Notes: generated by a model from the sequence alone, not told the origin. Positions 46,929-64,000 are shown, counted from the first letter of the stretch. The stretch: 64,000 nt of DNA from Dethiobacter sp. (GCA_003605065.1 QZJM01000063.1:12485-76484); one strand, 5' to 3'. Numbers and translations: made by a program.

Positions 46929-47063
46929 AAAAAGGAAAGGTAAAAAATCAGTGGCTAAATTTGACAGACAACGGGTTCAGGAATTAACTAATGTATCTGG
47001 TTCCTAAAAGAATAGCAACGTAAATAGTGATAAATTAAAAAAATCAATAGGGTGGTGCGATAA

Positions 47064-48134
47064 ATGACTTTAACATCAAAAGAACGGGTATTAAACCAGC
47101 TACAGGGCAAGGAGATAGACCGGGTGCCCTGCTACAGCGGGATGGGCAATGTTACAGTAACGGGGTTGAAACAACTGGGCTACAGGTTCCCCCATGTGCA
47201 CAGCGACGCCGAAAAAATGGCCAAACTGGCGGCTACTTCATACAAGCTGTTTGGCTATGAGTGCGCTGTGGTTCCCTTTGATTTCTGCCTGGAGGCAGAA
47301 GCGCTGGGTTGTGTGATAAATCCTTACGAGGATGTAGAGCACCTTCTTTACCCTACCATCAAGGAGAAAGCTATACACAGCGAGGCGGAGATGGCCACTT
47401 TTCCCGTCCCGGAAGACTTAGAAAATGTTGGCCGGGTTCCTGTAGTAGTCGAGGCCATCCGGCGTTTGAAAGAGGATATCGGAGATAAAGTAGCTGTGGG
47501 CACATATTTCACTGCCCCCTTTACTTTGGCTGGTCAAATTTTTGATCTGGACCAGCTCTTTAAGCTATCCTTCAAAAAACAGGATCTTGTTGGCCAAATG
47601 CTCGACAGGCTCGCCGATGTCCTTATCGAACTGGGTAAAATTTATCGTGATGCCGGGGCCGATTATATTAACGTGCGTGAAATGGGGGCAACGACGGATA
47701 TCTTAAGTCCCCGCAGCTTTAAATCCTTGATTTTGCCTCCTCTCCAGAAAATTCATGCCGCGTTAAGTGCTTTAGGAATTCCCAATATCCTGCACATTTG
47801 TGGAGCGACTAATGCTATTGTTCCACTTATGATTGAAGCTGGTGCTGATGCTATTACCGTTGAGGTTAAAAACAATATGCTGAAAACAAGGGAAGATATT
47901 GGTTTTGAACCACTTGTTTTCGGCAATCTTGATGCTTATAAATTATTTGTCCATGACAGCGTGGAGGATGTGGAAAAAGCTGTTATAACTGCTCTGGAGC
48001 AGAGTGTCGACGCTATATGGCCCGGCTGCGATATCTGGCCTGAGGCCAAGCCGGAGAACTTTAAAGCTATGGTCGAGGCTACGGAAAAATATGGCGCGGA
48101 AAAATGGGTGCGCAAACAAAAGTCCGCATCGTAA
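47064..48134 (+). CDS. uroporphyrinogen decarboxylase (URO-D) family methyltransferase (MtaA/MtbA/OdmB-like MT I)
   Basis: 356 aa. URO-D fold signatures (ERVLNQLQGKEIDRVP..). Confidence 0.8.
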   Translation: MTLTSKERVLNQLQGKEIDRVPCYSGMGNVTVTGLKQLGYRFPHVHSDAEKMAKLAATSYKLFGYECAVVPFDFCLEAEALGCVINPYEDVEHLLYPTIKEKAIHSEAEMATFPVPEDLENVGRVPVVVEAIRRLKEDIGDKVAVGTYFTAPFTLAGQIFDLDQLFKLSFKKQDLVGQMLDRLADVLIELGKIYRDAGADYINVREMGATTDILSPRSFKSLILPPLQKIHAALSALGIPNILHICGATNAIVPLMIEAGADAITVEVKNNMLKTREDIGFEPLVFGNLDAYKLFVHDSVEDVEKAVITALEQSVDAIWPGCDIWPEAKPENFKAMVEATEKYGAEKWVRKQKSAS

Positions 48135-48163
48135 TGTCATAAATTATGGAGGAGGTAAATAAA

Positions 48164-49192
48164 ATGTCGGCAATGACTGCAAGGGAACGTTTTTTAAACA
48201 AGCTGGCAGGAAAGGAAACTGATCGTGTTCCTGTTTTTTGTGCTGATCAAACGGGAACTTATGAACAGATGGATAACTTACGGTCTTTTTGGCCGGAAGC
48301 CCATCAGAAGGCCAAAGAAATGGCCGGGCTGGCCCTGGGCGCCTTTACTGTTGCGGGCTTTGATGCTGTAAGAGTTCCGTTCTGCCAGACAATTGAGGCC
48401 GAGGCACTGGGAGCGGGCATAAAATATGCAGGAAAAGAGGGGATCCCCAGTGTTAACGTCCACCCCTACAAGCTGGGTGAGCCTGTCGGACCTCTTCCGG
48501 AGAATTTTTTAGAACGGGGCAGAATACCGGAATTAATTGAGGCGGTAAGGATCTTGAAACGTGAAGTGGGGGATCAGGCTGTTATTATTGGCGGCATCAT
48601 TGGGCCTTTCAGTATTGCCGCCAGCCTGATTGGTATTACCGATATTTTGAAGGCAGCTTTTAAGACCCCGGAAAAGGTTAAACCTTATCTGGACCTTGCC
48701 GGGGAAGCGGGAACAACTTTAGGAAAAGCCTTAATCGAAGCCGGAGCGGATTTGATCTGTGTTGAGGATATGATGGCCTCTATGGATATGATTAGCCCCA
48801 AAATTTACAGGGAACTGGTGGCTCCCTGGGAAACAAGGCAAAATGCCGCTTTATCCGTGCCCGTTATTCTTCACATTTGTGGAAAGACCGATATAATTAT
48901 TGACGATATGGCCAATACAGGAGCCAGTATACTCAGTGTCGAACCAAAAGTTGATGCACCTGCTGCTAAGGAAAAATTAAAAAAATACGACCGCTTTATT
49001 CCTCTAATCGGTGGTGTGGATGCCGTAACAACACTCTTTTCCGGCAGCGAGGAAGAAGTTGTACAGGAGACGATTAAAGCTATCAATCAGGGTTACGACA
49101 TGATTGCACCCGGTTGTTCCATCGCTCCTGGCTCCCCTGTCGTTAATTTACGGGCGATGATCAAAGGCGCTACCCTGGCAAAGGAACAGTAA
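48164..49192 (+). CDS. URO-D family methyltransferase, paralog
   Basis: ATG at 48164 after GGAGGAGG. ARERFLNKLAGKETDRVPVF parallels the upstream paralog. Confidence 0.8.
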   Translation: MSAMTARERFLNKLAGKETDRVPVFCADQTGTYEQMDNLRSFWPEAHQKAKEMAGLALGAFTVAGFDAVRVPFCQTIEAEALGAGIKYAGKEGIPSVNVHPYKLGEPVGPLPENFLERGRIPELIEAVRILKREVGDQAVIIGGIIGPFSIAASLIGITDILKAAFKTPEKVKPYLDLAGEAGTTLGKALIEAGADLICVEDMMASMDMISPKIYRELVAPWETRQNAALSVPVILHICGKTDIIIDDMANTGASILSVEPKVDAPAAKEKLKKYDRFIPLIGGVDAVTTLFSGSEEEVVQETIKAINQGYDMIAPGCSIAPGSPVVNLRAMIKGATLAKEQ

Positions 49193-49271
49193 AATAGGCC
49201 CGGTGTTAAAATAAATATCCGCAGTCTTTTCAGCGAAAAACATCACCTTTTTATTTAGTATAATTTCTGGC

Positions 49272-50009
49272 ATGGGAAAGAGCTGTGGAGAACGGGTGAT
49301 ATTTGTGAGAGTTAAAATTCCGTATCCATTTTTGGACTTTGAAAATTTGGATTTACAGATTAAAAAAATGGGTGCTGATCTGGTGGGATTTGGTGATGTG
49401 AGTTCCGGCCTTGCTCCTGAATTTTCTCATATTCCCAAAGCCATTGCCCTTGGCATTAAGTATCCGGTATTTGAGGTAGATATTAATAAACCAAATTGTT
49501 TTTTGGAACGGTGCTTTTCCATCGATAAGCGTTTGCAGGAGATTCAGAAAAAAGTTGCGGCAATTTTAAGAAATAACGGCTGGCGGGCGTTGCTAATCCC
49601 CCCGGACTCTCACCGGGAAATCTCCAGTTTTATTGCCAGGTTGTACCATTTATTTCCTCACAAAACAGCAGCTACTTGCTCCGGGCTTGGCTGGATCGGC
49701 AAAAACGGGCTGTTGATCAGTCAGGAATTCGGGCCGCGTTTGAGCTGGGCTACAGTTTTAACGGATGCACCCCTTTTGCTAACCCCTTATCCTATTACTA
49801 TCAGCCACTGCGGTAATTGCCGCTATTGTGTGGACGCCTGCCCGGCTGGAGCCATTCGTAACGTTCTCTGGGAGCGGAAGAACAGTTATGAACCTTTAAT
49901 TGATGTACAGCGCTGCTTTGCCCAGTTGCAAAAAAACCAGGAACTCTACGGGCATTTTTCCTGTGGGGTTTGCGTACTGGTTTGCCCGCAGGGTATATCA
50001 CAAAAGTAA
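49272..50009 (+). CDS. QueG-like (epoxyqueuosine reductase-like) 4Fe-4S protein
   Basis: GLGWIGKNGLLIS..FGPRLSWA and two Cys clusters (CGNCRYCVDACP; CGVCVLVCP) resemble the QueG C-terminal region. The ORF is shorter than canonical QueG. Confidence 0.55.
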   Translation: MGKSCGERVIFVRVKIPYPFLDFENLDLQIKKMGADLVGFGDVSSGLAPEFSHIPKAIALGIKYPVFEVDINKPNCFLERCFSIDKRLQEIQKKVAAILRNNGWRALLIPPDSHREISSFIARLYHLFPHKTAATCSGLGWIGKNGLLISQEFGPRLSWATVLTDAPLLLTPYPITISHCGNCRYCVDACPAGAIRNVLWERKNSYEPLIDVQRCFAQLQKNQELYGHFSCGVCVLVCPQGISQK

Positions 50010-50061
50010 GGCTTACTATCAAAAACAATCTGCTTTTTTTAACATTTAAAAATGTTTAGTC

Positions 50062-50090
50062 TTGACAAAATTAACTTTACTTTATATAAT
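50062..50090 (+). promoter_or_regulatory. consensus sigma-A promoter TTGACA-17-TATAAT upstream of the cobalamin riboswitch
   Basis: TTGACA at 50062..50067, 17-nt spacer, TATAAT at 50085..50090. Confidence 0.55.
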
Positions 50091-50179
50091 TAAAGACAAC
50101 ATAAACTTTACTGTTACTAAATATTTTAACACTTAGAGTTGTTAATAAATATGTTAAATATACTTGGTAATGATTCGGG

Positions 50180-50336
50180 TGCTTCTCTTTCACCTGGAGA
50201 AGATAATAGGGAACCAGGTGTAATTCCTGGGCGGTCGCGCCACTGTGAAGGGAGAGCTTATTTCAGAAAGGTCACTGGATAAAATCCGGGAAGGCAGAAA
50301 TAAGCTATGACCCCAAAGTCAGGAAACCTGCCCGTT
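50180..50336 (+). promoter_or_regulatory. cobalamin (B12) riboswitch
   Basis: AATAGGGAACCAGGTGTAATTCCTGG, B12 box GCCACTG (50239..50245), CCGGGAAGGCAG, and AGTCAGGAAACCTGCC all match conserved blocks of the cobalamin riboswitch. Confidence 0.85.
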
Positions 50337-50423
50337 TCATAGTACATAAAAAAACCTTCTTCGCGTTAAGGGAGGGGTAATTAACATATTAAAACTCGCG
50401 CGGATAAGGTGGTATTATTTAAA

Positions 50424-50561
50424 ATGGAGAATATGGTTAATAAAAAGACCAATTCTACTGCTATTGTTAACAATCTTTTGGGCAAAGAATGGTCTTTTGT
50501 TGTTCATAAGACCGGTGCAACACAATATTTTCTCATTACGCAGTTAATGCCTGTTTATTAA
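50424..50561 (+). CDS. small hypothetical ORF (45 aa) between the riboswitch and pylSn
   Basis: ATG after TAAGGTGGT. It is followed by an imperfect 10-bp hairpin plus T-run (50562..50600). Its coding status is uncertain. Confidence 0.2.
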   Translation: MENMVNKKTNSTAIVNNLLGKEWSFVVHKTGATQYFLITQLMPVY

Positions 50562-50667
50562 AGCGGCTATATCCTAATAGGAGTTATATGGCCGCTCTAA
50601 TTTTTGAACAGATCAAAAGCGATTTTCAGGTGTAGACAGTAAATAGCTTGCCGGGGGTTAAAATAGT

Positions 50668-51006
50668 ATGCCTCTTAAAAATGTTATAGAAGCCAAAAAG
50701 CAGAAAGGGGAAAAAATTGATAATAAAGTAAGATATATCCAGAAACATAAACCCATATTTTCAGTGCTTGAAAAAATTAAGCTTTGGCCTTCAAGTTCAG
50801 GTATCTTACATGGTATTAAACATTTAACCAGGGATGGCAATTATATAGTAATTGAAACACATTGTCATGAGCAGATAAAGGTAAGGATATCAAAAAACAG
50901 CCGAGCTGCAAGGTGGCTGAGGAACAAGTGGGCTGAAAGGGTATGTACTGTTTGTCGTATTCCGTCCTGGAAAGTTAATAAGTATCTAAATACATCGTTT
51001 AAATAA
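50668..51006 (+). CDS. pylSn: pyrrolysyl-tRNA synthetase N-terminal tRNA-binding domain protein
   Basis: 112 aa. Matches the bacterial PylSn free-standing domain. Directly precedes pylSc. Confidence 0.85.
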   Translation: MPLKNVIEAKKQKGEKIDNKVRYIQKHKPIFSVLEKIKLWPSSSGILHGIKHLTRDGNYIVIETHCHEQIKVRISKNSRAARWLRNKWAERVCTVCRIPSWKVNKYLNTSFK

Positions 51007-51018
51007 GTGGAGGCATTA

Positions 51019-51834
51019 ATGAAGTTTACTCATGTGCAAATACAACGTCTTATTGAACTTGGTTTAAATACCGGCCTTGAGTATGAATTTGCCAATAGTA
51101 TTGAAAGGGAAGCAAATTTTAAGCAACTGGAAAAAGAACTAGTCAAACAAAACAAAGCTGCATTAAAAAGATTGCATGAAGAGAAACGTCCTTTGCTTAA
51201 AACTGTAGAACAAAAACTTATTGGTGTTTTAACTGAAAATGGATTTATTGAAGTAATCACACCTATTTTAATGTCCAGGGGCTTGCTGGAAAAGATGGGA
51301 TTAACTCCTGAATTATTTCGACAGGTGTTTTGGGTTGATGAGGGGAAAAAAAGGTGCTTGCGCCCAATGCTGGCTCCTCATTTATACTACTTGTTAAGAA
51401 AAATGAAAAAAATATGGCCTGCTCCCCTGAAAATATTTGAAGTTGGACCGTGTTTTCGCAAGGAGTCAAAGGGAGGGTACCATATGGAAGAATTTACCAT
51501 GTTGAATCTGGTGTGCTTTAGCTGTACTGAACCCCTTGCTGAGTTGCTGGATCTGGCTGATAAACTGCTTGACCCTTTTAATATACCATTTAACATTACT
51601 GATGAGTATAGTGAAGTTTACGGCCGGACGATTGATATAGTAGTAAATGATGTAGAAATTGCTTCTGCCGCGGTTGGCCCGCATGAGCTTGACAAAAACT
51701 GGGATATTACCGGCAGCTGGTATGGAATCGGTTTGGGATTGGAACGTTTGGCTATGGTTCTCCAGGGGTATCAAAATATAAGGCGCGTGAGCAGGAGTTT
51801 AAGTTACCAAGATGGGGCCCGCCTTAATATTTAG
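51019..51834 (+). CDS. pylSc: pyrrolysyl-tRNA synthetase catalytic domain (class II aaRS core)
   Basis: Class II motifs (FRKESKG..; GIGLGLERL). ATG at 51019 after GTGGAGG. Stop is TAG. Confidence 0.9.
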   Translation: MKFTHVQIQRLIELGLNTGLEYEFANSIEREANFKQLEKELVKQNKAALKRLHEEKRPLLKTVEQKLIGVLTENGFIEVITPILMSRGLLEKMGLTPELFRQVFWVDEGKKRCLRPMLAPHLYYLLRKMKKIWPAPLKIFEVGPCFRKESKGGYHMEEFTMLNLVCFSCTEPLAELLDLADKLLDPFNIPFNITDEYSEVYGRTIDIVVNDVEIASAAVGPHELDKNWDITGSWYGIGLGLERLAMVLQGYQNIRRVSRSLSYQDGARLNI

Positions 51835-51867
51835 AGTTGCACTTAAAACGGGGGTATATTTTTAAAA

Positions 51868-52980
51868 ATGCCGGACGAAAAATTTCCTGTTGAGAATTTC
51901 ACAAGAAAGGCTTTAATGAAGCAGCCGTTAACTGCCTCGGAAATTGCGGCCCTGGTTTACCTGCGTGATGAAGGGCAAATTGCCAGGCTTAAAAAGGGTG
52001 CCTGCCAGATCAGAACACAATTTTTTGGCAATCATGTTTTCCTTTACGGGTTTGTTTATTTTAGCACATATTGTCGAAACCTTTGCTCATTTTGTAATTA
52101 TGCGGCGAAGAATAAGATGAACAGGTATCGCAAATCAGTTCAGGAGATACTGGCAGTATGCAGAAGCCTGCAGTTCTCAGGAGTTCATCTTATTGATCTG
52201 ACCATGGGAGAGGACCCTCATTATTTAACACATGAAGGTGATGCTCTCCTGGAACTGGTTAAATTTGTTCGCTCCCAGGTAGATTTGCCGCTAATGTTGT
52301 CACCGGGAGTTATCGGAGAACATTTGCTTGAAAGCCTGGCTGAACTTGGAGTGGCCTGGTATGCCTGTTATCAGGAAACCTATAATCCTAATTTATTTCA
52401 ACAGCTAAGGGTGGGGCAAAGTTTTACCAGGCGTTTGGGGGCGAAACAGAAAGCCAGAGAAGCTAACCTGCTGGTAGAGGATGGGATGCTGTTGCATCTC
52501 GGAGAGAGTGAACAGGATATTATTTCTTCCATTCTCGCTATGCAAAGACTCGGAGTTCACCAGGCCAGGGTTATGGCTTATGTTCCTCCGGAACCTAACG
52601 GTCTACCTAAAAGGCGCTCTCACAACCTGGAAGAAGAAACGGTTATCGCCATTTTGCGCCATGTTTTTCCGGACAGATTGATTCCCGCGTCACTGGATAT
52701 AGAAGGTTTAAAAGGTCTCTCTTCCCGCTTGAAGGCCGGAGCCAATGTCGTTTCTTCCATTATTCCCCCCATGACCGGGCTAAGGGGAGTATCTCAAACT
52801 ACCCTTGATATTGATGAGGGGAGAAGGACTGTGGAAAACGTCAAAGAGGTGTTGAAATCGCTGAATTTGGAAGTTGCACCTTTAAGTATGTATTTTGCCC
52901 TGGTGCAGCGTTTTAGAGAGGAACAAAGAATGGGAACTATGGGGAATATAGGGGAAGAAAGGGTAGGCTTGCTTCTATGA
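51868..52980 (+). CDS. pylB: methylornithine synthase (radical SAM lysine mutase)
   Basis: FSTYCRNLCSFCNY radical-SAM cluster motif. Close overall match to archaeal PylB. Confidence 0.9.
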   Translation: MPDEKFPVENFTRKALMKQPLTASEIAALVYLRDEGQIARLKKGACQIRTQFFGNHVFLYGFVYFSTYCRNLCSFCNYAAKNKMNRYRKSVQEILAVCRSLQFSGVHLIDLTMGEDPHYLTHEGDALLELVKFVRSQVDLPLMLSPGVIGEHLLESLAELGVAWYACYQETYNPNLFQQLRVGQSFTRRLGAKQKAREANLLVEDGMLLHLGESEQDIISSILAMQRLGVHQARVMAYVPPEPNGLPKRRSHNLEEETVIAILRHVFPDRLIPASLDIEGLKGLSSRLKAGANVVSSIIPPMTGLRGVSQTTLDIDEGRRTVENVKEVLKSLNLEVAPLSMYFALVQRFREEQRMGTMGNIGEERVGLLL

Positions 52981-53861
52981 CAAGGTTAAAGCAGGAAAAT
53001 TTACTCTCTCTCGATCTTAGGAAATATGATTGTGAACTGGAGGAAAAAGCCGGGAAGACTTTGGCTCAGCTTGTTCAGGAAGGGGCGGGCTTAACTCAAC
53101 CCCTGGAAATGTTTACAAAGGAAAAAGCAGCAGTTATACCGATTACTGCAGGCCTGGGAATAATTACAGGTTTTACTGCGGCAGTGGAATCAATACTTAA
53201 GCATGTGGGTCTTAATGTTAAACTGACGGAAAACACAGATATGGCAGGAATAAGTGAAGCTCTGGACTGGGGTGCAAATCTTCTCTTTTGTGCTGATGAC
53301 AACATCTTTTTCGTGCTGGATATGCTTAGTGGTAGCTATGTTGATAATGCCCTGGCTACAGCGGATATGTTTATGTTTGCGATCAACAAGCTGGCTGATG
53401 GTCTCCAGGGGAAGAGCACTTTGATTGTAGGCCTGGGTAAAGTTGGTAATGCCTGCTTGCTATCTGCTTTGCAGAAAGGTGCAAAAGTGTACGTTTATGA
53501 TAAATTGCCGGAGCATTGTGTAACCGCTGCCCGTAAGTATCCAGGTGTATCCCCGGTAAAGGAATCATTAATGAATGCCTGCCGGAAAGCGCAGGTAATT
53601 ATTGATGCTTCCCCGGAAGGAAGTTTTATCAGGGATGAGTGGTTGTCAGATGATGTGGTAATCGGGGCACCCGGTGTGCCGCTCGGTTTGGAGGAAAAAG
53701 CATATAAACGGCTGTTTAAAAGAGTTATTCATGATTGTCTTCCCCTGGGGGTTGCCGGTATGGTTGCCAAAGTTTTCTCCCAGCGGAAAGGACTTAACAA
53801 GTCTGTAAGAAAGAAGGTGGGATATGAGCAAGTGGTAACAGCACTCGGCAGGCTTGACTAA
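52977..53861 (+). CDS. pylD: pyrrolysine synthase (NAD-dependent dehydrogenase)
   Basis: LIVGLGKVGNACLLSALQKGAKVYVYD Rossmann motif paralleling the archaeal PylD region. 4-nt overlap with pylB. Confidence 0.85.
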   Translation: MTRLKQENLLSLDLRKYDCELEEKAGKTLAQLVQEGAGLTQPLEMFTKEKAAVIPITAGLGIITGFTAAVESILKHVGLNVKLTENTDMAGISEALDWGANLLFCADDNIFFVLDMLSGSYVDNALATADMFMFAINKLADGLQGKSTLIVGLGKVGNACLLSALQKGAKVYVYDKLPEHCVTAARKYPGVSPVKESLMNACRKAQVIIDASPEGSFIRDEWLSDDVVIGAPGVPLGLEEKAYKRLFKRVIHDCLPLGVAGMVAKVFSQRKGLNKSVRKKVGYEQVVTALGRLD

Positions 53862-53963
53862 AGGTGGATAAAGTGTGGAATCTCTTACAAGAGCGTGGGG
53901 GATTCAGGCATCGGGAAAGATGGTCAAGTATATTAAAACCGCTTAACAAAGGAGTGAGCAAAA

Positions 53964-55133
53964 ATGAGTAAACGGCATCTTCTGTTTCTGGTCTCCGGAG
54001 TTGTTGCCTTGCTGGTTTTAAGCACTACCGCTTTCGCCCAGGAAGTTACCCCTCTTGCTGAACAGCTTTTCCGCTATCACCGCGGGCAGGACATCTTTTT
54101 TATGTTCATGCTGGTGGCATTTCTGATGTTGTTCATCAAACGCTATGAGTGGGGCGTTTGTTTGATGACAATGCTGATCATATCGGTTGCCTTTCCTTTC
54201 TATTTTGCAGTGCAGACAATTTATTTTGGCAATGCCTGGAATATGGATCTGATTATCCTGGGAGTAGTCTGTGCCATTACCCTGGTAATCTCTGCAGGTA
54301 TGTTTCTCGGCCAGGTTAAAACATGGCAGTATATAATTATTGGATTATTATTTGTTATCGCTTATTCCATTAATGAATGGTTTCTTTTTACCTACCTGGA
54401 AGGAGTTGCTGATATGGGCGGCAGCCTTCTGGTCCATGCTTTTGCAGCCTACTTTGGCTACGGGATGATCTTGTCGTTACGGCATAAAAAGATCATGGAT
54501 GCTCCCATGAAAGTAACGGTCCACAGCGTTTCTTTTGTCTGGCTGGCATCCATGTTGCTATGGATGCTCTGGCCATCATTTACAACTGCGCTGCTTGCAC
54601 CGGACCAGGTAATCGGCGGTATGCTTGCCACTTACATGGCCTTAATGGCTTCCACTGTGATAACTTACCTGGTGCTTCTGGCAATCCATAAAAAAATCGA
54701 TCCTTTAGTTTATACCTATGCCATCCTGGCTGGTGGGGTAGCTATTGGCTCTACGGTTGATCTTGTCGGGCCGTGGGCTGCTTTTGCTATAGGACTGCTG
54801 GCCGGCATTGTTTCCTCCCTGTGCTTTGTTTACCTGCATCCTACCCTTGAAAAAGTACTGGGTGTTCGTGATGTAATGGGTGTACACAACCTGCATGGTG
54901 TTCCAGGAATTCTTGGTGCTCTTTTTGCTATTCCTTTTGCCGGAGCCATACAGGTTACAGCTGCAGTAGGGACATTTGTAATAGCAATAGTTACCGGACT
55001 GGTTGCCGGGTTGATTATGAGAGCTTTCGGAAGAAACGAGGAATACATCCTAGACGATGCTGAAAGCTTCTCCATGGAAGACGCCAGGGGCACTGAAAGC
55101 GTTTCCATAGGAGAATCAGGTATTTCTGTATAA
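53964..55133 (+). CDS. Amt/MEP/Rh-family ammonium (methylammonium) transporter with N-terminal signal peptide
   Basis: Signal peptide ..TTAFAQEV. 11 predicted TM segments. Amt signature region VDLVGPW..GVHNLHGVPGILGALF. Confidence 0.8.
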   Translation: MSKRHLLFLVSGVVALLVLSTTAFAQEVTPLAEQLFRYHRGQDIFFMFMLVAFLMLFIKRYEWGVCLMTMLIISVAFPFYFAVQTIYFGNAWNMDLIILGVVCAITLVISAGMFLGQVKTWQYIIIGLLFVIAYSINEWFLFTYLEGVADMGGSLLVHAFAAYFGYGMILSLRHKKIMDAPMKVTVHSVSFVWLASMLLWMLWPSFTTALLAPDQVIGGMLATYMALMASTVITYLVLLAIHKKIDPLVYTYAILAGGVAIGSTVDLVGPWAAFAIGLLAGIVSSLCFVYLHPTLEKVLGVRDVMGVHNLHGVPGILGALFAIPFAGAIQVTAAVGTFVIAIVTGLVAGLIMRAFGRNEEYILDDAESFSMEDARGTESVSIGESGISV

Positions 55134-55208
55134 TTAAACCCTGTTTTAAATTGGCTGCTCTCATAGAGCGCATACAGCGGGTTTTTTGCTAAAAACCCCG
55201 TAATTCAT

Positions 55209-55280
55209 GGAGGGTTGATCGGCAGGATCACGTAGACTCTAAATCTGCGCAGCCGGGTTTGACTCCCGGACTCTCCTCCA
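55209..55280 (+). tRNA. pylT: tRNA-Pyl (anticodon CUA), encodes CCA
   Basis: GGAGGGT..ACTCTCC 7-bp acceptor stem. 6-bp anticodon stem CGTAGA/TCTGCG with loop CTCTAAA. A single nucleotide separates the acceptor and D stems. Short variable loop. T-arm CCGGG-TTTGACT-CCCGG. These are all hallmark pylT features. Confidence 0.85.
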
Positions 55281-55368
55281 GTTACCCAACAGATTTAGTA
55301 TCCTTGCAAGGAGGTGAATCTTTTGACCGGCATTTAAAAGTTCAATCTTCCGGGAAGGAGGTGATTCT

Positions 55369-56014
55369 GATGAGTAAAGAAATTCTGGCCAAATTACAAC
55401 GTGCTGTCGAAGAACAGGATGTGGAAGCCGCTGAGGCTGCGGCCCGTGAAGCAGTTGCCGCAGGGATCGATCCCTTTGTGGCTATCAACGAGGGCCTATC
55501 TCCCGCTATGCAGACCATTAGTGATCTGTTTGATGACGGAGAACTGTATGTGCCCCAGATTTTGTTTGCGGCAGAGGCTTTTATGAATGCCATGGCTATC
55601 CTGACAGAAAAGCTTTCGGCAGAAGAAGTAAGCAAAACTAAGCGCGGCAAAGTTATCGTGCATACAGTCCAGGGAGATATCCATGACATCGGAAAAAATA
55701 TTGTCGGCACAATGTTAACAGCCAACGGCTTTGAAGTAATTGACCTGGGCCGCGATGTTCCGATTGATGTGGTTGTGGAGAAAGCAAAAGAGCTCGGAGT
55801 AGACATGGTTACCGGTTCGGCGCTTATGACCACCACTATGCCATCCCAAAGGGATATTGTTAAGGCACTCGACGAAGAAGGTATCAGGGGAAAAGTCAAA
55901 TGCATGTTTGGTGGTGCCCCGGTTACTAAGGAGTGGGTCGACCAAATCGGTGCCGATGGTTATGCAAGTAACGCCTCTGAAGCGGTAATTGTAGCGAAGG
56001 AACTTATGGGTTAA
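55369..56014 (+). CDS. mtmC: monomethylamine corrinoid protein
   Basis: GDIHDIGKNIV DxHxxG motif. Strong similarity to archaeal MtmC across the full length. RBS GGAAGGAGG. The ORF-track start at 55259 overlaps pylT and is rejected. Confidence 0.9.
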
Positions 56015-56042
56015 AAAAATCTTTAAGAAAGGAGTGAGAAGA

Positions 56043-57422
56043 ATGTCTAATGTTCCCAAGGTTGGGGTATTTGAAGCCTATGCCAGGGCAACTACAGGAC
56101 CACGCGTCCCTGAAAAAGACTGGGACTACAAAATCATTCCCCAGGCCGCCAGCCGCCTGAAGGAAAAATACGGCATCAAAATGGATAAAAGGAAGATGAT
56201 TCCCACAGATGAAAATCTAATAAACAATCTCTTCAGGGCAGGCATGGAAATGCTGGTGGAATGTGGAGTTTACTGTATGGATACTGGGCGGGTTATCAAG
56301 TACACCGAAGAAGAAGTCTGGACGGCCGTTAAAAATGCCCCCAGGTGTTTAACGCTCGGTGAAGGCCGTGATTCAAGAGAACTCAAAGGGCGCAGGTATG
56401 ACGACAGCAGGCCGCCTATCATCCAGGGGGGACCTACCGGAGCACCGGTAGCAGAGCAGGACTTTGTAGCCATGCACGAAGCCTATGCCCGTGAGCCGAT
56501 CGTCGATACCATTGTTGACGGTGTTATGCAGACGATCAATGGCTACGATCCGAGGCCTAACACCCCCTTCGAAATTGCGGCGGTCAAGAACGAAGCGATG
56601 ATGATTAGACTGGCACAGGTCCGTGCCGGTCGCCCGGGGATGGGATTGTAGGGCAACGAAACTTCACTCAGTGCCGCAGGGGTTATCGCTGCTGATTTTC
56701 CCGGCGGCATGAGGGCATCAGATAGCCATGAAGTTTCCCAGCTGAACGAGCTGAAGATAGATGTAGGTGCACTATCTTTTGTTGCTCACTATGTTTTGGC
56801 TGGAGATATCATCATGTGTGAACAGATGCCCATCTTGGGAGGCTATGCAGGTGGTCTGGAGGAAACGACCATTGTTGACGTTGCCACCACGCTGAATGCC
56901 TTCCTAATGACACAGGCGCACTGGCATCTTGATGGCCCGATCCATGTGCGGTGGGGGATTACCACGGCCAGAGAAGTGCTGGCGGTAGCCGGCCACTGTG
57001 CACGGGCAATCGAGGAAAATACACATTTACTTCTTGGTAACCAGTATTATACATTGGCCGGTCCCTGCACGGTAATGTGCCTGTTGGAAACGGCAGCCCA
57101 GTCTATCACCGATACAGCCAGCGGCCGGGAACTTGTTTCCGGGGTAGCCTCGGCCAAAGGAGTGGCCACAAACTATACTACTGCCATGGAAGCCCGCTTC
57201 ATGGGTGAAGTGGCCCATGCTGTAGCCGGGATGGATTTAGAAAAGGTTAACGGGATTCTTGATGAGCTGGTAGGTATGTACGAGACCCAGTACAAGACAG
57301 CTCCCAAAGGAAAAACTTTCAATGAGTGCTATGATCTTGTCAGGTTGACTCCTTCTGACGAGTACATGCAGGTTTATAAAGAGGCGTGGGGGATTTTAAA
57401 TAAACTCGGCCTCAAGTACTAA
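56043..57422 (+). CDS. mtmB: monomethylamine methyltransferase with in-frame UAG (56649..56651, codon 203) decoded as pyrrolysine
   Basis: Two same-frame ORFs (56034..56651 and 56709..57422) are separated only by TAG. Flanking sequence ..GMGL-UAG-GNETSLSAAG.. and ..DSHEVSQLNELKID.. matches archaeal MtmB around its Pyl codon. pylT and pylSBCD are in the same locus. Confidence 0.9.
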
Positions 57423-57523
57423 GGGCCAGGGGTAAGATGCAGCAGCCTGTACCCCGGTCCGCTTTCTTGGGCCGGGGTACAGGGTATTTTGTTTACGTAA
57501 TTAAAAAAAAGAGGAGAAGAACT

Positions 57524-58087
57524 TTGTTTAATTACTGGCGAAATAAAAAAAAGAAAAGGCTTTTGCTCTCTCTTTTGGAGAAAAAGGCCGCAGAGGCAAA
57601 TCTTGCTGTTATAGTTGTCAGCCCCAAAGAAATTACCGTTCACGAAGGTGTCAGGCTTAAGTGCCTGGTTCCCCAGTGTGAATACTACGGTGTTTGCCGG
57701 CTTTGCCCTCCCAATCTTCCCCCTGTTTCAGAAATACGGGCTGCTTTGTCTTATTTCCAGCAGGCATACCTGGTTGTTCTGAGATATCCTCCGGTTGCCA
57801 GGGAGGAGGTGTGGAAGCCAGAAAAAATCCTGCTGGATACTGTAAACGAACTGGAAAAAGTGGCCTGGTCGAAAGGTTTTTACCGCGCTGCCGGGCTGGT
57901 TGTGGGAGGATGCAAGCTGTGTGAACGCTGCGCGCCTCTGCATGAGCCGTGCCGGCATCCTTACCGGGCCAGGCCCAGTCCTGCAGGTCTGGGCATTGAT
58001 ATTACTATGCTGGCAAAAAGGAAGGGAATACCGCTAAGCTGGCCTCCCGGCGATGAGCTAATTTTTTTGGGTCTGCTCCTGGTATAA
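57524..58087 (+). CDS. DUF2284-family putative metal-binding protein
   Basis: Cys-rich with CPP motif (CRLCPPN), ~187 aa from TTG at 57524 after GAGGAG. Confidence 0.55.
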   Translation: MFNYWRNKKKKRLLLSLLEKKAAEANLAVIVVSPKEITVHEGVRLKCLVPQCEYYGVCRLCPPNLPPVSEIRAALSYFQQAYLVVLRYPPVAREEVWKPEKILLDTVNELEKVAWSKGFYRAAGLVVGGCKLCERCAPLHEPCRHPYRARPSPAGLGIDITMLAKRKGIPLSWPPGDELIFLGLLLV

Positions 58088-58183
58088 AACATTTGGGAAC
58101 AGGGATGGAAAACATTCATTCTACTACGTAACAAGCATACATTATCTATTGATGCGACTGATAGGGTCGTGTGGTTAGTGTAA

Positions 58184-58720
58184 ATACAGGAATTAAACGT
58201 TCCCCGTTATGGAAAAGTTGTGGCTGGTAGCAAATTCACTGTTGTTGCCGCACAAAATCCTTATGACGATGTTGGCACAGTACGCATTAGCCGTGCTTTT
58301 ATGGATCGAATTTGTCGCATTACTTTAGATTATCAAACCGAGGCCGAAGAAATAGAAATTGTTAAAAATAGAACCGGTTTATCTGATGATAATTTGGTCT
58401 TGTGGGCTGTAAAGCTAACGCGGCAGTCACGAAGTCACGATGATATTAAAATGGGAGCTTCAGTGCGTGCTGCCATTGACATAGTTGCCTTGAGCGAAAG
58501 TATGAAAAAAAGAGGGGCTTTCACCAGGGATAATGTTAAAGAAGCTGTTTTTATGGCTCTAAGCAGTAAAATATGGCTGACTGAAATGACCCCCAAAACC
58601 CCGGAACATGTGATACGTGAAATTATCAATGTTGTTGAACAAACAGAGGGGATTAGTTATTTTCCTGCTGCAGGACAAGAAGAACAAAAACCGCAGAAAA
58701 AAAAAGCGATGAACAATTAA
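58184..58720 (+). pseudogene. MoxR-like AAA+ ATPase fragment (C-terminal two thirds only, Walker A region missing)
   Basis: VVAAQNP..AFMDRI sensor/arginine-finger region of MoxR. The open frame begins at a stop at 58181 with no N-terminal ATPase half. Confidence 0.55.
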
Positions 58721-58737
58721 AACAGACGGGAAAAAAC

Positions 58738-58959
58738 TTGCCGCTAATCAGGCTAGATCAAGATCATGCAAGTGATCTTTCTTTGCCCTATCGTCTGGCG
58801 ATGTACTACAGTAATAATCCGGAAGAACTAGAGAATTTTTTTGAACAGGATGAGGCCATTACTATTTTCGGCACTTTTTTTGATATGCTTAAGTCGGAGG
58901 CAAAAAAGATAGCTAAGGGTATACATATTTATCTTTTATCTGCTGTATCAAATTTTTAA
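58738..58959 (+). CDS. small hypothetical ORF (73 aa)
   Basis: ORF only, with no recognisable motifs. Confidence 0.2.
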   Translation: MPLIRLDQDHASDLSLPYRLAMYYSNNPEELENFFEQDEAITIFGTFFDMLKSEAKKIAKGIHIYLLSAVSNF

Positions 58960-58976
58960 TGAGAGGATGTACTTAA

Positions 58977-60173
58977 TTGAACGTGGGTGTTCTGGGAGGT
59001 GGATTACAGGGTCTGGAGGCGGCTTATCTTCTTAAAAAAGCCGGTCACAGGGTTTTGATGCTTGAAAAGAGGCCACATGCTCCTGCTCTGGGGTTGGCTG
59101 ACGAAAAGTTTTGTTTTAACCTTACAGCTACCTGTCAACAGGAACTGCTAGATTTTTTAAAGAAAGTTGATGTAATTATTCCCGCTACGGAAAATAAAAC
59201 CACCCTTGTGGTTATGAATGAGGCGGCGAAAAGATATGCCAAAGTTTTCTGCTTTGATTCCCAGGCATATGAGCTAAGCAGCAGTAAAAGCCTGTCCAAT
59301 AAGCTTTTTTCTCAGCTGGCACTGCCCAGGCCTATTCCCTGGCCGGATTCCTCTTTCCCCTTAATAGTAAAACCGTCTGAGGAAAGCGGAAGCCGCGGTG
59401 TAAAAATTGTTTTTAACCAAAATGAACTGGATAAGGTCCTAACCGAAGAAAAACTGTATAAAGGCGGTTTTATCATTGAGGAATTTCTGGAAGGTCCTTC
59501 ATATTCCATAGAGGTGGTTACAATAAACGGTGAAGGTTTCGCTTTTGAAACAACTTTGCTTGGTTTTGACGAGCTTTTTGACTGTAACAGGGTTATTGCC
59601 CCCAACGGGTTAGATGAAAAGAGTAATAAAGAAATGCAGGAAATGGCACTGCGTATCGCGCAGTCCTTAAAGCTTACAGGTATCATGGATCTGGAAACTA
59701 TTTTACATGAAGGAAAGTTTAAAGTGCTGGAAATTGATGCCCGTTTGCCGAGTCAAACACCTACTGTTGTCTACAAGGCAACAGGCCTGAATCTGGTTTC
59801 TTATTTATTGTCGTCATTTCTTCACAAAGATTTACCGGGGGTAGAAGCAGGTGCAAAAAGAGCTGTAATTTATGAACATCTTTATTTTTGTGACGGCATG
59901 GTCTTTTTCCCCGGAGAACATATCATCACCTCCTGTAAAGAAAATCTTTTTTATATGGAGGATTTTTTTGGTGCAGACGAAGCCATTACGAACTGTGTGG
60001 AAAAAAAGGAGCAAAAATCCTGGGTTGCTACTGTTATCATAACGGGCCACAACCTGGAACAGGCCCGTACCAAAAGAGAATATATGCTGAAAAGGATTTT
60101 AGAAAAATACCGGGCTGAATTATTTCCTTCTAAAAATATCGAGAAAACTGCAGTAAAGGGAAGAAAAAGTTAG
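58977..60173 (+). CDS. pylC: pyrrolysine biosynthesis ATP-grasp ligase (3-methylornithine--L-lysine ligase)
   Basis: ATP-grasp. ..LEIDARLPSQTPTVVYKATGLNLV.. closely parallels archaeal PylC. TAG stop. Confidence 0.9.
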   Translation: MNVGVLGGGLQGLEAAYLLKKAGHRVLMLEKRPHAPALGLADEKFCFNLTATCQQELLDFLKKVDVIIPATENKTTLVVMNEAAKRYAKVFCFDSQAYELSSSKSLSNKLFSQLALPRPIPWPDSSFPLIVKPSEESGSRGVKIVFNQNELDKVLTEEKLYKGGFIIEEFLEGPSYSIEVVTINGEGFAFETTLLGFDELFDCNRVIAPNGLDEKSNKEMQEMALRIAQSLKLTGIMDLETILHEGKFKVLEIDARLPSQTPTVVYKATGLNLVSYLLSSFLHKDLPGVEAGAKRAVIYEHLYFCDGMVFFPGEHIITSCKENLFYMEDFFGADEAITNCVEKKEQKSWVATVIITGHNLEQARTKREYMLKRILEKYRAELFPSKNIEKTAVKGRKS

Positions 60174-60185
60174 GGAGGCTTGGAG

Positions 60186-61823
60186 ATGAACAAAATTGGT
60201 ATTGCCCTGGATTTGGGGACCAGCGGTTTTCGAGGACAGGCCATCGACTTGTCTGCGAATGCGGTTTTAAAAACAGTAATAACTGCCCGTCATCCCCTGC
60301 CTGGCGCAAACGTGATGGATCATCTCAACTTTGCCATTATGGCTGGGCCGGATGTAGCTCACCAGATCATCATGGCTACAATAAACCAGATTATAGATCT
60401 GCTAAATATGCCCGGTTTCGCCATTGAGTGTTTTGCCGTTTGCGGCAACCCGATTCAACTTTCCCTCTTTGAAAATATTGAAATCAGGGATTTGGCCTAT
60501 GCGGGTGAAAATTACCGCCGCCAGCTGGGGATTGTCTCTCCTGATCGCAGCAGCAAGGAATACCCGGCTGAGCGGTTTCCACTGTTAAACTTACCGGGGA
60601 ATTGCCTGGTTTTTATTCCCCCTGCTGTAAAACATGAAATAGGGGCAGATGCTCTGGCCATGTTGATTCTTTCCGGAATTCTGGATAAGGAAGAAATTTG
60701 CCTGGCTACCGATTACGGGACAAATGCTGAAATGGCTCTGAAAGTGGGAGATAAAATCATTACCGGTTCTGCCGCTGCCGGCCCTGCTCTGGAAGGACAG
60801 CATGTTGAGAACGGGATGCTGGCTGCACCTGGGGCCATTTCTGACCTCCGACCGGAAAACGGCGGCTACCGTTGTCTTGTTCTCAATACTGAGATGCAGC
60901 CTGAGGACGGAGATTTACTTACTCTTGACAATGGAACTGTACTTCAAAAGGGCCGGTTAGAGGCCAAAGGAATAACCGGAACGGGTGTAATAGCAACAGT
61001 TTCACAGGGTATGGACAGCGGCCTGGTAAGCCTTCCCAATATTAAAACTGCTAGCGGCTCACTGCATCTTTCCAACGGGATTCGTTTTAGTAAGAAGGAC
61101 TTAATCGAAGCCGGGAAGGCTATCGGCGCAATCCGGGCCGGTTACCTCACACTGGCCGCTGAGGCAGGAGTCTCTGTAGAAGATATCCGTGTTGCTTTTA
61201 TGGCCGGTGCATCGGGAACTTATGTGGATGCACGTAAAGCGATGAACATCGGCATGGTTCCTCCTAAGGTAAAGGAAATATATCAGGTTGGTAATACTTC
61301 CTTGTTGTTGGCAAGAGAAATTGTGCAGGATCCCCGGAGATTAAAAACTCTTGATGAAATTGCCCGACAGTTACGGGCAAGACATTGTATGTTTGGTCTT
61401 TCCAAGGTTTTTGAAAAGGCTTATTTGCTGGAGCTTTCATACTGGACGGAAGGCCTCCCATGGGAACTTTATAAAAAATACGCCAGAATGTACCAGCTTC
61501 CGGAGTTGCCGCAGCTTCACACCGATGTAAATGTTACTAAAAAGGTCACCCGTGATATAAGGGATATTGGGAAAGATGGCTTGATCACCATAGAGAGAGT
61601 CGGTGAAGAAAGACACTGGTTTGTACCCGGGTGTGTCAACTGTGGCCAGTGTGTAGAAGAATGCCCTGAAAATGCTATAAAGCTCGATGATACTCTGGGC
61701 GTTGTGATGCGCATGGACTGCTGCAGTGGAACTGCCTGCCAGCGCTGTGAGCATATTTGTCCGGAAAAAGTTTTTCGTCTTTCAGAATTTTGGATGAACT
61801 CTTTAAAAATTAGCTGTGATTAG
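60186..61823 (+). CDS. ramA: RamA-like corrinoid reductive activase (ASKHA ATPase plus C-terminal 2x[4Fe-4S] ferredoxin domain)
   Basis: ATG at 60186 after GGGAGG. C-terminal CVNCGQCVEECP and C..C..CQRCEHICP clusters. Confidence 0.8.
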   Translation: MNKIGIALDLGTSGFRGQAIDLSANAVLKTVITARHPLPGANVMDHLNFAIMAGPDVAHQIIMATINQIIDLLNMPGFAIECFAVCGNPIQLSLFENIEIRDLAYAGENYRRQLGIVSPDRSSKEYPAERFPLLNLPGNCLVFIPPAVKHEIGADALAMLILSGILDKEEICLATDYGTNAEMALKVGDKIITGSAAAGPALEGQHVENGMLAAPGAISDLRPENGGYRCLVLNTEMQPEDGDLLTLDNGTVLQKGRLEAKGITGTGVIATVSQGMDSGLVSLPNIKTASGSLHLSNGIRFSKKDLIEAGKAIGAIRAGYLTLAAEAGVSVEDIRVAFMAGASGTYVDARKAMNIGMVPPKVKEIYQVGNTSLLLAREIVQDPRRLKTLDEIARQLRARHCMFGLSKVFEKAYLLELSYWTEGLPWELYKKYARMYQLPELPQLHTDVNVTKKVTRDIRDIGKDGLITIERVGEERHWFVPGCVNCGQCVEECPENAIKLDDTLGVVMRMDCCSGTACQRCEHICPEKVFRLSEFWMNSLKISCD

Positions 61824-62053
61824 TTCAGGTTAATACTTGTCTCCGAGGTATTTTTCTGGTAAGATATAACAGGAAGAATAAAGCCTGTTTAGCTGATTAT
61901 TATAACAGTTACTTTAATTAAAAAAGTTTAAAAGTGTATTTTCCCGGAGATATAAAAAACGAAACTGGAGAATATACTTTTTCTATCTATAAAACATATA
62001 TTTTTTGTCATAAGATGTTGAAAAATTCTTAATATAGCAAGAGGTGGCTTCTC

Positions 62054-64000
62054 TTGACGGAAACGCTCTCTTTGGAAAAACGTACCGAGAGAATAGGGGC
62101 TTCATGGCAGAGATTTATTGTAAAAGGCAAAATTGAATCTTATGTCGTCAGTGAAATTATTGCCAATTCCTGGCAACGAAGCCTGGAAGCCGGTGTTAAC
62201 CCCTTTGTTAATCTGCAGACCTTTTTTACCGTTAAAAATATTATAGATTATAAGTATCTTGTGAAGGTAAGCCGTCCTTTTCTGGATAATCTTTATGCTT
62301 TTGTAAAAGGCTCTGACTTTTTGGTTCTTTTAACTGATGCAGATGGAACGATTATTAAAGTTCTTGGAGATCCGGTAATAGTACAGAAGTTAAAAAATAT
62401 TCCTTTTCGGGAAGGAGTTAACTGGGGTGAAGGCTGTCTGGGAACAAACTGTATTGCCCTTGCTGTAAAGGAAAAGATCCCTGTGCATGTTTTTGCTGCA
62501 GAACACTTTATTCAGCAGCTTCACTCCCTGGTAGGTTCAGCGGCGCCTTTTTTCTGCCAGAATGGAAATCTTCTTGGCGTTATTGCCATGTTCGGGTTAT
62601 TCAAGGATTTTCATCCTCATACCCTGGGAATGGTTGTCGCCTCTGTGAAGGCTATAGAAAACCAGATTTTATATATGGAAGCAAACCGTTCCCTGAAAAG
62701 ATCTTACAGGGAAGTCACTACGATTATGGAGGAGATAACTGCCGGATTGATTTCAGCTGATCACCAGGGCAGGGTAAGCATGTTGAATACAGCTGCCTGT
62801 AAAATGCTGGGCATTAATTATCAGGCAGGGGTTTCCCAGCATCTTGGTCAACTATTTGGGAAAGACTGCCCCTTTCTTCAGGCCATGGAAGAGGATCTAG
62901 AATATTCTGATCGGGATATAACATTGTCCTGTAACGGCATAACCAATCGTTTCTACTGCAGCCTTCGCATTATAAGAGATGAAAACAATAAGAAACTAGG
63001 TATGGTAATTACCCTCCGTGAACACAAAGCTATCCGCCGCCTTGTAAACAGGGCATTTGGCGCTCAGGCCACTTTTACCTTTTCTGATATCTATGGAGAG
63101 CACTTGTTAATTAAAAAGGCCATTAATGCGGCACAGCGTGCTGCCCATTCTAATAATACCATTTTAATTGTGGGCGAAAGTGGTACCGGCAAAGAAATGT
63201 TTGCCCAGGCCATACATAATGAAAGCGAGCGCTGCAGGGGTCCTTTTGTGGCTATCAACTGTGCCGGAATTCCCAGGGAACTGGTGGAAAGCGAACTTTT
63301 CGGTTACGAAGCGGGGGCTTTTACAGGTGCCAGGCGGGAAGGCCGTCCTGGAAAATTTGAACTGGCACAGGGCGGAACTCTCTTTCTGGATGAAATAGGA
63401 GATATGCCCCTGGAGATGCAAGCAAAGTTATTAAGGGTACTTCAGGATAAATTTATTACACGCCTGGGAGGAGATTCCCCTATCCTGGCAGATGTACGTG
63501 TAATCGTGGCTACCAACCGCAATATTTTTGCCCTGGTGGAGGAAGGAACTTTCCGCCCCGATCTCTTTTATCGCATTAATGTCATTACACTGCAATTGCC
63601 AAGTTTACGCACCCGTGAGACAGACATACTCCTGCTGGCTAATTTATTCCTTGAAAAAGCCATTTTTAAAATGGGACTCCCTTCCCCGCCAAGGCTTTCG
63701 GGGAGATTGGAAGAGAGACTTTTACGCTATTCCTGGCCGGGGAATGTCAGAGAACTGCAGAATGTAATAGAGCAAATGGTTTTTAACGCCAACGGTTCTC
63801 TCAAACTGGATGAAGAACACCTGCCCGAAAAAATGATGAAAACTGCTACAACACAATCAGGTTCCGAAGATATGGCCCTGGAAGCCCAGGAATTAAAACA
63901 TATTCTTTTGGCTCTGGAAATGTGCCAGGGCAATATTGCCCATAGTGCGCGGCTGCTAGGCATTGGCCGCAACACTTTATATCGCAAAATTAACAAGTAC
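62054..64000 (+). CDS. sigma-54-dependent transcriptional activator (AcoR-like: N-terminal GAF/PAS sensory region, AAA+ sigma-54 domain, Fis HTH), 3' end beyond window
   Basis: TTG start after AAGAGGTGG. GESGTGKE Walker A, GAFTGA loop (GYEAGAFTGA), ESELFGY and HTH (ARLLGIGRNTLYRKINKY). Absent from the ORF track because the frame runs off the window edge. Confidence 0.8.
   Translation, partial: MTETLSLEKRTERIGASWQRFIVKGKIESYVVSEIIANSWQRSLEAGVNPFVNLQTFFTVKNIIDYKYLVKVSRPFLDNLYAFVKGSDFLVLLTDADGTIIKVLGDPVIVQKLKNIPFREGVNWGEGCLGTNCIALAVKEKIPVHVFAAEHFIQQLHSLVGSAAPFFCQNGNLLGVIAMFGLFKDFHPHTLGMVVASVKAIENQILYMEANRSLKRSYREVTTIMEEITAGLISADHQGRVSMLNTAACKMLGINYQAGVSQHLGQLFGKDCPFLQAMEEDLEYSDRDITLSCNGITNRFYCSLRIIRDENNKKLGMVITLREHKAIRRLVNRAFGAQATFTFSDIYGEHLLIKKAINAAQRAAHSNNTILIVGESGTGKEMFAQAIHNESERCRGPFVAINCAGIPRELVESELFGYEAGAFTGARREGRPGKFELAQGGTLFLDEIGDMPLEMQAKLLRVLQDKFITRLGGDSPILADVRVIVATNRNIFALVEEGTFRPDLFYRINVITLQLPSLRTRETDILLLANLFLEKAIFKMGLPSPPRLSGRLEERLLRYSWPGNVRELQNVIEQMVFNANGSLKLDEEHLPEKMMKTATTQSGSEDMALEAQELKHILLALEMCQGNIAHSARLLGIGRNTLYRKINKY

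Follow-up and report, generated by a model that had tools for sequence, protein, structure and literature searches.

A pyrrolysine gene cluster with pylB joined to pylD and pylC displaced downstream in Dethiobacter sp. is probably typical of a small bacterial clade

The window analyzed here, a 64,000-nucleotide (nt) stretch from a metagenome-assembled genome (MAG) of Dethiobacter sp. (Bacillota, class Dethiobacteria), contains a co-directional block of genes for the synthesis and use of pyrrolysine (Pyl) at 50.0–61.8 kb, in which pylC is separated from pylB and pylD. All features of this block listed below are on the + strand. Proteins were identified with NCBIfam equivalog models with curated cut-offs and with Pfam, and all five Pyl proteins scored above their equivalog cut-offs with near-full model coverage. 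The gene for the tRNA-binding small subunit of pyrrolysyl-tRNA synthetase (PylRS), pylSn (50668–51006; TIGR03912, 107.7 bits, cut-off 51), ends with TAA and is followed after 12 nt by pylSc, encoding the catalytic subunit (51019–51834; TIGR02367, 278 bits, cut-off 178; TAG stop), which most likely starts at ATG 51019, preceded by a GGAGG Shine-Dalgarno (SD) sequence, rather than at GTG 51007. Next come pylB, encoding a radical-SAM methylornithine synthase (51868–52980; TIGR03910, 404.5 bits, cut-off 348), and pylD (52977–53861; TIGR03911, 202 bits, cut-off 150), which overlap by 4 nt (ATGA). The pylBCD cluster is not contiguous: pylC, encoding an ATP-grasp methylornithine-lysine ligase (58977–60173; TIGR03909, 384 bits, cut-off 248, full length; TTG start, TAG stop), does not lie between pylB and pylD but starts 5.1 kb past the pylD stop.

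The roughly 5 kb between pylD and pylC hold amt, pylT, mtmC, mtmB, a DUF2284 gene and an AAA+ gene fragment. The first of these encodes a channel of the Amt family that is divergent and has a signal peptide (53964–55133; Pfam Ammonium_transp, 123.8 bits, below the TIGR00836 cut-off). It is a candidate methylammonium channel, in which a sequence matching the EcAmtB twin-histidine region can be recognized by eye. The tRNA-Pyl gene pylT (55209–55280, anticodon CUA) was found by ARAGORN and folds into a cloverleaf with the compact architecture of tRNA-Pyl, in which the D-loop has 5 nt, the anticodon stem has 6 bp and the variable region is short. A near-perfect 8-bp palindromic hairpin, GGGTTTTT-TGCT-AAAAACCC (~55179–55198), stands in the gap that separates the amt stop codon from pylT, about 10 nt from the tRNA on its 5' side, and may serve in processing or in termination. 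The mtmC-type gene for a methylamine corrinoid protein (55370–56014, with the corrected ATG start at 55370; TIGR02370, 252.9 bits; Pfam B12-binding domains) precedes mtmB, the monomethylamine methyltransferase gene (56043–57422), which has a single in-frame TAG (56649–56651); with this codon read through, the product covers positions 2–450 of the 450 positions of Pfam MtmB (735.7 bits), and a PYLIS_1 element follows the UAG (56649–56748; Rfam RF01982, 91 bits). An intrinsic terminator with a 16-bp stem, 11 G-C pairs and a U-rich tail lies 3' of mtmB (57446–57483). The DUF2284 gene encodes a Cys-rich metal-binding protein of 187 amino acids (57524–58087; PF10050, 122.7 bits) and most likely starts at TTG 57524; the 5' part of the longer open reading frame (ORF) overlaps this terminator. 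It is followed by remnants of an AAA+ (MoxR-like)/VWA gene (58190–58914) and, beyond pylC, by the gene of a RamA/RACo-type corrinoid reductive activase with an ASKHA domain and a C-terminal 2x[4Fe-4S] region (60180–61823; Pfam RACo_C_ter, 209.5 bits, with Raco_middle and Fer4). The initial annotation had named the genes from pylSn to pylC in this order, with all features at, or a few codons from, the coordinates given here, and its statement that pylC is displaced from pylB-pylD by about 5 kb is borne out by the coordinates and the NCBIfam matches. Judged from these matches, nothing is missing from the window's set of genes for making Pyl, charging its tRNA and decoding it, and mtmB, the predicted UAG client gene, is accompanied by the genes of its corrinoid partner and of a reductive activase.

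To compare gene orders, one genome per GTDB species was scanned with a six-sequence PylD alignment, which gave 80 loci; the window proteins were mapped on them by tblastn and pylT by ARAGORN, while a scan with an Amt alignment matched a single metagenome locus, L083. Identical order was found in two independent assemblies of the window organism, L001 (a Logan run, 99.6% nt identity) and L002 (a JGI metagenome, 100%). Locus L003, from another species (PylD 87% identical), is collinear with window positions 48737–59630 except for two insertions or deletions, and it has a hairpin homologous to the 57446–57483 terminator after mtmB. In L083, whose pyl proteins are 53–66% identical to those of the window (PylD, 53%), the order is URO-D, pylSn, pylSc, pylB, pylD, pylT, amt, mtbC, mtbB, mtmC, mtmB, DUF2284 (62% identical to its window orthologue), a 614-residue AAA_5+VWA gene, pylC, DUF6951 and a 245-residue Fe-S protein gene. 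Locus L004 (PylD 51%, pylT 93.6%, Amt 74% identical) has the order pylB-pylD-pylT-amt-corrinoid protein, after which its 4.1-kb contig ends. The Amt-family gene, at 5248–6417 in L003, 1676–2884 in L004 and 4527–5711 in L083, was found within pyl loci in this clade only. The 4-nt overlap of pylB and pylD (ATGA/GTGA) is kept in all four lineages (window, L003, L004, L083). Since the pylB-pylD/pylC arrangement recurs in L003, L083 and L004 at PylD identities of 51–87%, the event that produced it must be old. The initial annotation had considered that the same order in related genomes would make it lineage-typical rather than unusual, and this is what we found, in full in L003 and L083 and for the pylB-pylD junction in L004. 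The layout is thus probably typical of a small clade (the window organism, L003, L004 and L083) in which it was inherited, and not a fresh rearrangement.

Two further observations concern the neighborhood in these relatives. Nucleotide identity between the window and L003 is uneven, with 96% at the 3' end of the URO-D gene, 82–83% from pylSn to mtmB and 91% over pylC, which hints at recombination between lineages or at differing constraints. The gene of the 245-residue 4Fe-4S protein is located upstream of the riboswitch (described below) and pylSn in the window (49272–50009) and in L003, and downstream of pylC, after DUF6951, in L083 (14612–15355), a shift of position that amounts to a second rearrangement in the neighborhood.

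Among the 71 loci with enough upstream sequence to be scored, the gene directly before pylD is pylC in 51, pylSc in nine, another gene or none detected in seven, and pylB in four, all of which belong to the window's own clade; pylB directly precedes pylD on the short L004 contig as well. Direct succession of pylB and pylD is therefore rare (4/71), and to this extent the gene order is unusual as had been claimed, although the order as a whole is common to the related L003 and L083 and is in this sense lineage-typical. Broken pylBCD clusters are not rare, making up about 28% of the scorable loci. The nine loci with pylSc before pylD mostly show the order B-C-Sn-Sc-D-T and come from Syntrophomonadaceae, Syntrophaceticus and Thermacetogeniaceae; at least 12 loci have a corrinoid-protein gene between pylSc and pylB; pylT is found after pylD about as frequently as before pylSc; and adjacent pylSn and pylSc were observed in Natroniella (L013), in the archaeal loci L010 and L046 and in the Syntrophomonadaceae type.

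These distributions also bear on the baseline against which the locus had been judged. The initial annotation took pylT-pylSc-pylBCD with a distant pylSn as the usual bacterial order, which is wrong, as pylSn normally stands right after pylD: the bacterial layouts described are pylTScBCDSn and pylSnScBCD, and interruptions of the cluster are known too (PMC3941956). The split PylS belongs to the largest class of PylRS, with 204 sequences (PMC11363022), and the order Sn-Sc, which had been seen as departing from the usual one, occurs in the recognized layout pylSnScBCD (PMC3941956). Nor is the separation of pylT from pylS unusual, given that pylT is distant from pylS in many loci.

The AAA+ fragment, described earlier as a MoxR fragment and interpreted as the scar of a rearrangement, is indeed a truncated and frameshifted gene, but a comparison with L083 and L003 argues against a scar. 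The remnants lie in two different frames at 58190–58669 (in a 166-residue ORF) and 58771–58914 (in a 73-residue ORF) and match, by tblastn, residues 150–309 (68% identity) and 340–387 (77%) of the 614-residue protein of L083. They lack the 149 N-terminal residues with Walker A and B, as well as the C-terminal VWA domain, so that no intact P-loop ATPase core is left. In L083, an intact gene for the AAA_5 (MoxR-like)+VWA fusion (10767–12611; Pfam; Walker A GPPGTSKS at residues 58–65) occupies the same position between DUF2284 and pylC. L003 has no segment equivalent to window positions 57547–58902 (1.36 kb), and its pylC is displaced nevertheless; only the first eight codons of its DUF2284 gene are left, the conserved pylC leader is still present, and L003 is therefore a deletion derivative. 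The segment 58190–58914 accordingly has the features of a decaying resident gene, a pseudogene remnant, and not of a footprint of the separation of pylC. AAA+/VWA pairs are typically chaperones for the insertion of metal centers or cofactors.

The AAA/VWA gene thus forms a series, being intact in L083, a remnant in the window and deleted in L003. The dimethylamine module forms another one: L083 has an intact mtbC-mtbB pair, with a TAG and a PYLIS_2 match in mtbB; L003 has, between pylT and mtmC, an mtbC-like corrinoid gene running into a 93-residue C-terminal fragment of MtbB that has kept the PYLIS_2 match (6609–7658); the window has neither gene.

The history of the cassette was analyzed using neighbor-joining (NJ) trees built from tblastn-derived segments with Kimura distances and 100 bootstraps. 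All five proteins, PylSn, PylSc, PylB, PylC and PylD, recover the clade as monophyletic with 100% support. PylC of the window joins L083 (100), then Natroniella L013 (86) and then Hydrothermarchaeum/Hadarchaeota (L010 and L046; 85); PylSc has the same partners (bootstrap 81), and the next neighbor of PylD is L010 (71). By this phylogeny the cassette belongs to the Acetohalobium/Natroniella-type group; the Acetohalobium-type group has been linked to archaeal (Hydrothermarchaeum) sequences by Guo et al. (PMC9630628). The trees likewise indicate that pylC is the original gene, sharing the history of the other pyl genes.

In the scenario that fits these data best, the ancestor of the clade would have remodelled a cassette of the Acetohalobium/Natroniella type, pylT-pylSn-pylSc-pylB-pylC-pylD. 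In the course of this, pylB would have been joined to pylD by the 4-nt overlap, pylC left at the 3' end, and pylT, the Amt-type channel gene, mtbCB, mtmCB, DUF2284 and the AAA+/VWA gene placed after pylD; a later shrinkage in the window genome would account for the loss of mtbC-mtbB and the reduction of the AAA+/VWA gene to a two-frame remnant. Both pylC and pylT may have moved by translocation or, as another possible route, by tandem duplication with reciprocal loss.

The second route, which concerns the path and not the present function, would start from a duplicated T-Sn-Sc-B-C-D unit, whose first copy would have lost pylC while the second would have kept only pylT and pylC, the methylamine genes coming to occupy the gap; no translocation of pylC is needed. 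Such a scheme would account at once for pylD and pylT being neighbors in L004 and L083 and for pylC lying downstream, and the order of the sister group is indeed T-Sn-Sc-B-C-D. In no member of the clade did tblastn detect a remnant of a duplicated pylSn, pylSc, pylB or pylD, whether in the interval from pylT to pylC or past pylC; we regard this route as rather unlikely.

Improbable to a greater degree is a xenologous replacement, in which the original pylC would have been lost from pylBCD and a foreign pylC gained next to ramA. It could draw on the position of pylC, which together with ramA forms a block of its own past a strong terminator, and on the 91% nt identity to L003 over pylC compared with 82–83% over the other pyl genes. 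The PylC partners in the trees (L083 at 100%, then Natroniella and Hydrothermarchaeum/Hadarchaeota at 85–86%) match those of PylSc and PylD, which therefore argues against such a replacement.

The interpretation of the initial annotation, that the methylamine module entered a canonical pylBCD operon through a recent rearrangement in the window genome, with the MoxR fragment and spacer (58088–58976) left as the scar, has very little left in its favor. Consistent with it are the separation of pylC from pylB-pylD, the truncation and frameshift of the AAA+ gene at 58190–58914, and the signs that the neighborhood was reshuffled more than once, namely a pylT/amt order that differs from that of L004 and L083 and the Fe-S protein gene moved relative to L083. 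It is contradicted by the displaced pylC and the pylB/pylD overlap in L003 and L083 and the pylB-pylD junction in L004, at PylD identities of 51–87%, by the AAA/VWA gene being intact in situ in L083, and by L003, where pylC is displaced without any fragment; protein identities of 53–66% argue against the loci of the relatives being recent horizontal copies of the window island. An artefact of metagenome assembly or binning can practically be dismissed: the window does come from a MAG, but the same order in L001 and L002 excludes a chimeric contig, and two to three other lineages from other samples show this order as well.

An old layout inherited within the clade, as preferred here, leaves the chemistry of the pathway unaffected by gene order. 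PylB would make 3-methylornithine, PylC would ligate it to lysine, and PylD would oxidize and cyclize the ligation product to pyrrolysine; PylSn and PylSc would then charge tRNA-Pyl, and the mtmB UAG is predicted to be read as Pyl. Inferred from their families, the Amt-type channel probably supplies or imports methylammonium or exports ammonium, and RamA probably re-reduces the Co(II) corrinoid of MtmC. Further upstream, at 41506–49192, we noticed genes of a corrinoid adenosyltransferase, a regulator with three helix-turn-helix (HTH) motifs, a second corrinoid protein, a full RACo, an MtrH-type methyltransferase and two URO-D-type methyltransferases, forming a broader methylotrophy island. A T-box leader is located at 4472–4747.

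Nine of the 46 long ORFs of the window, including pylSc, pylC and ramA, end with TAG. Decoding of Pyl would therefore have to be regulated and not handled by codon avoidance, and presumably the organism controls when Pyl is expressed, in the way described for Acetohalobium arabaticum (PMC3941956, discussion). Since pylSn, pylSc and pylB share a reading frame, fusions by UAG read-through were tested. A fusion of pylSn with pylSc was rejected, as the stop codon in the window is TAA and the TAG codons in L003 and L083 are out of frame with pylSc or soon followed by a stop; a fusion of pylSc with pylB was rejected as well, with a TAA three codons past the pylSc TAG. The only open in-frame junction is pylC-TAG-ramA (60171–60190, TAG GGA GGC TTG GAG ATG ...). 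The chance of such a junction is about 7%; L003 and L002 end inside pylC, and in L083 another gene follows pylC.

The region in front of pylSn contains four putative regulatory features. A sigma-70-type promoter-like site, TTGACA-17-TATAAT, with a 12/12 match (50062–50090), has both hexamers identical in L003. It is followed by a cobalamin riboswitch aptamer (50160–50349; RF00174, 122.7 bits compared with a gathering score of 31.5, full model 1–189), which scores 104.8 bits in L003. A leader ORF for 45 residues (50424–50561), preceded by a conserved AAGGTGG, is present as the same gene in L001 and L002, and an ORF for 84 residues is found at its position in L003. Between the leader ORF and pylSn lies a terminator- or attenuator-like hairpin with a U-tract (50562–50605, -26.1 kcal/mol, z = -4.3, with 0/200 shuffled sequences as stable), and the equivalent hairpin of L003 has a compensatory change from C-G to U-A. 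With Rfam, the riboswitch was not found in L083, where the 4.5 kb before amt were covered as far as the contig reaches, or in 13 other pyl loci, and B12-box patterns gave no match to it at any of the other 80 pyl loci; in a set of 83 loci, the combination of riboswitch, leader ORF and terminator before pylSn is unique to the window organism and L003. Among the papers that could be searched, none links a cobalamin riboswitch with pyrrolysine. The window riboswitch has two competing folds, an anti-SD:SD helix (-18.7 kcal/mol) and a local P13-like hairpin (-7.6 kcal/mol), while the fold in L003 is no better than that of shuffled sequence; folding thus favors neither an on nor an off switch.

Taken at face value, the promoter, the cobalamin riboswitch and the leader ORF with its terminator would drive pylSnScBD-amt-pylT-mtmCB up to the 57446–57483 terminator, beyond which DUF2284, the pseudogene, pylC and ramA would need read-through or an unrecognized promoter; we infer two transcription blocks split by this terminator. 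The riboswitch would control translation of the leader ORF, whose stop codon abuts the terminator hairpin, so that this translation would set the read-through into pylSn...mtmB. Corrinoid availability would then affect PylRS, tRNA-Pyl, two enzymes of Pyl biosynthesis and the corrinoid-dependent methylamine methyltransferase alike, whereas pylC and ramA behind the second terminator would form a separate control point, and Pyl-dependent read-through could additionally give a PylC-RamA fusion. Combined into one model, in which the cofactor of the enzyme that uses Pyl gates the expansion of the code through the riboswitch and the leader/terminator, with separate control at the second terminator and a PylC-RamA fusion, these predictions are put forward tentatively, and the model in its entirety is less probable than its opposite.

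Other modes of control were considered as well. Sites of the sigma-54 type (TGGCA-N6-TTGCW) gave 11 matches, which equals the chance expectation, and none of them is intergenic in the locus. Directly after ramA, an ORF on the + strand that runs off the end of the window (~62030–64000) looks by eye like a sigma-54-dependent activator, with a sensor region, the Walker A motif GESGTGKE, a GAFTGA-like motif and a C-terminal Fis-type HTH. A check of the 61.8–64 kb region for tandem repeats and for its composition brought up no notable feature.

Several points weigh against the interpretation given here. The trees are simple NJ trees with weak deeper nodes (46–86%), and the sister group of PylB is unresolved in them. 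The taxonomic placement of the hosts is doubtful for L003 (labelled Desulfovibrio sp.), L004 and L083, and for this reason what appears as lineage-typical could partly reflect horizontal spread of the island and not vertical descent; moreover, the L004 contig stops before any position of pylC becomes visible. As to transcription, the operon boundaries are predictions only, and no promoter was recognized upstream of pylC, whose expression would be unexplained if the terminator is efficient.

In summary, the gene order is a further permutation of an already variable bacterial pyl cluster that leaves Pyl synthesis unchanged, and it is useful chiefly for comparison. It marks out a small bacterial clade that branches deeply and has a Pyl cassette akin to the Acetohalobium/Hydrothermarchaeum group, which has been implicated in transfer between domains. 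The genes mtmB and mtbB are uncommon in bacteria; the former occurs in this clade and the latter, in intact form, in L083. The clade also shows stepwise decay, with loss of mtbCB and an AAA/VWA pseudogene. The cobalamin riboswitch and the leader/terminator before pylSn are the more testable lead and, if their predicted role is true, would represent a previously undescribed way to control Pyl decoding.

Compared with known systems, the window is most similar to the Acetohalobium arabaticum/Natroniella type (pylT-pylSn-pylSc-pylB-pylC-pylD), with archaeal kin in Ca. Hydrothermarchaeum profundi and Hadarchaeota: in both, pylSn directly precedes pylSc and methylamine methyltransferase genes are adjacent, and the closest partners of PylSc, PylC and PylD are from Natroniella L013 and the archaeal L010 and L046. 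It differs from this type in that pylC is not between pylB and pylD, pylT comes after pylD and amt and not before pylSn, an Amt channel gene and mtm genes lie inside the cassette, and a cobalamin riboswitch stands in front of it. With the Desulfitobacterium/Desulfosporosinus/Sporomusa type (pylT-pylSc-pylB-pylC-pylD-pylSn) the window shares the split PylS, the same five protein genes and pylT, and the use of Pyl for methylamine methyltransferases, but in that type pylSn follows pylD and pylBCD is contiguous, whereas in the window pylSn precedes pylSc.

The layout pylB-pylC-pylSn-pylSc-pylD-pylT of Syntrophomonadaceae, Syntrophaceticus and Thermacetogeniaceae (L005, L006, L009, L011, L012, L014 and L064), which provides the best pairwise matches of PylD and PylSc outside the clade, resembles the window in having a broken pylBCD, adjacent pylSn and pylSc, and pylT after pylD; there, however, the displaced gene is pylD and no methylamine genes lie inside the cassette, while in the window the displaced gene is pylC. 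Finally, the Methanomassiliicoccales offer a published precedent for non-contiguous genes of Pyl biosynthesis: in Ca. Methanomethylophilus alvus, pylB is about 0.7 Mb away from pylTSCD, and M. luminyensis has an extra isolated pylC and pylT (PMC3941956). These organisms differ from the window in being archaeal and without pylSn, in having another gene displaced, and in the far larger distance that separates it from the rest of the cluster.

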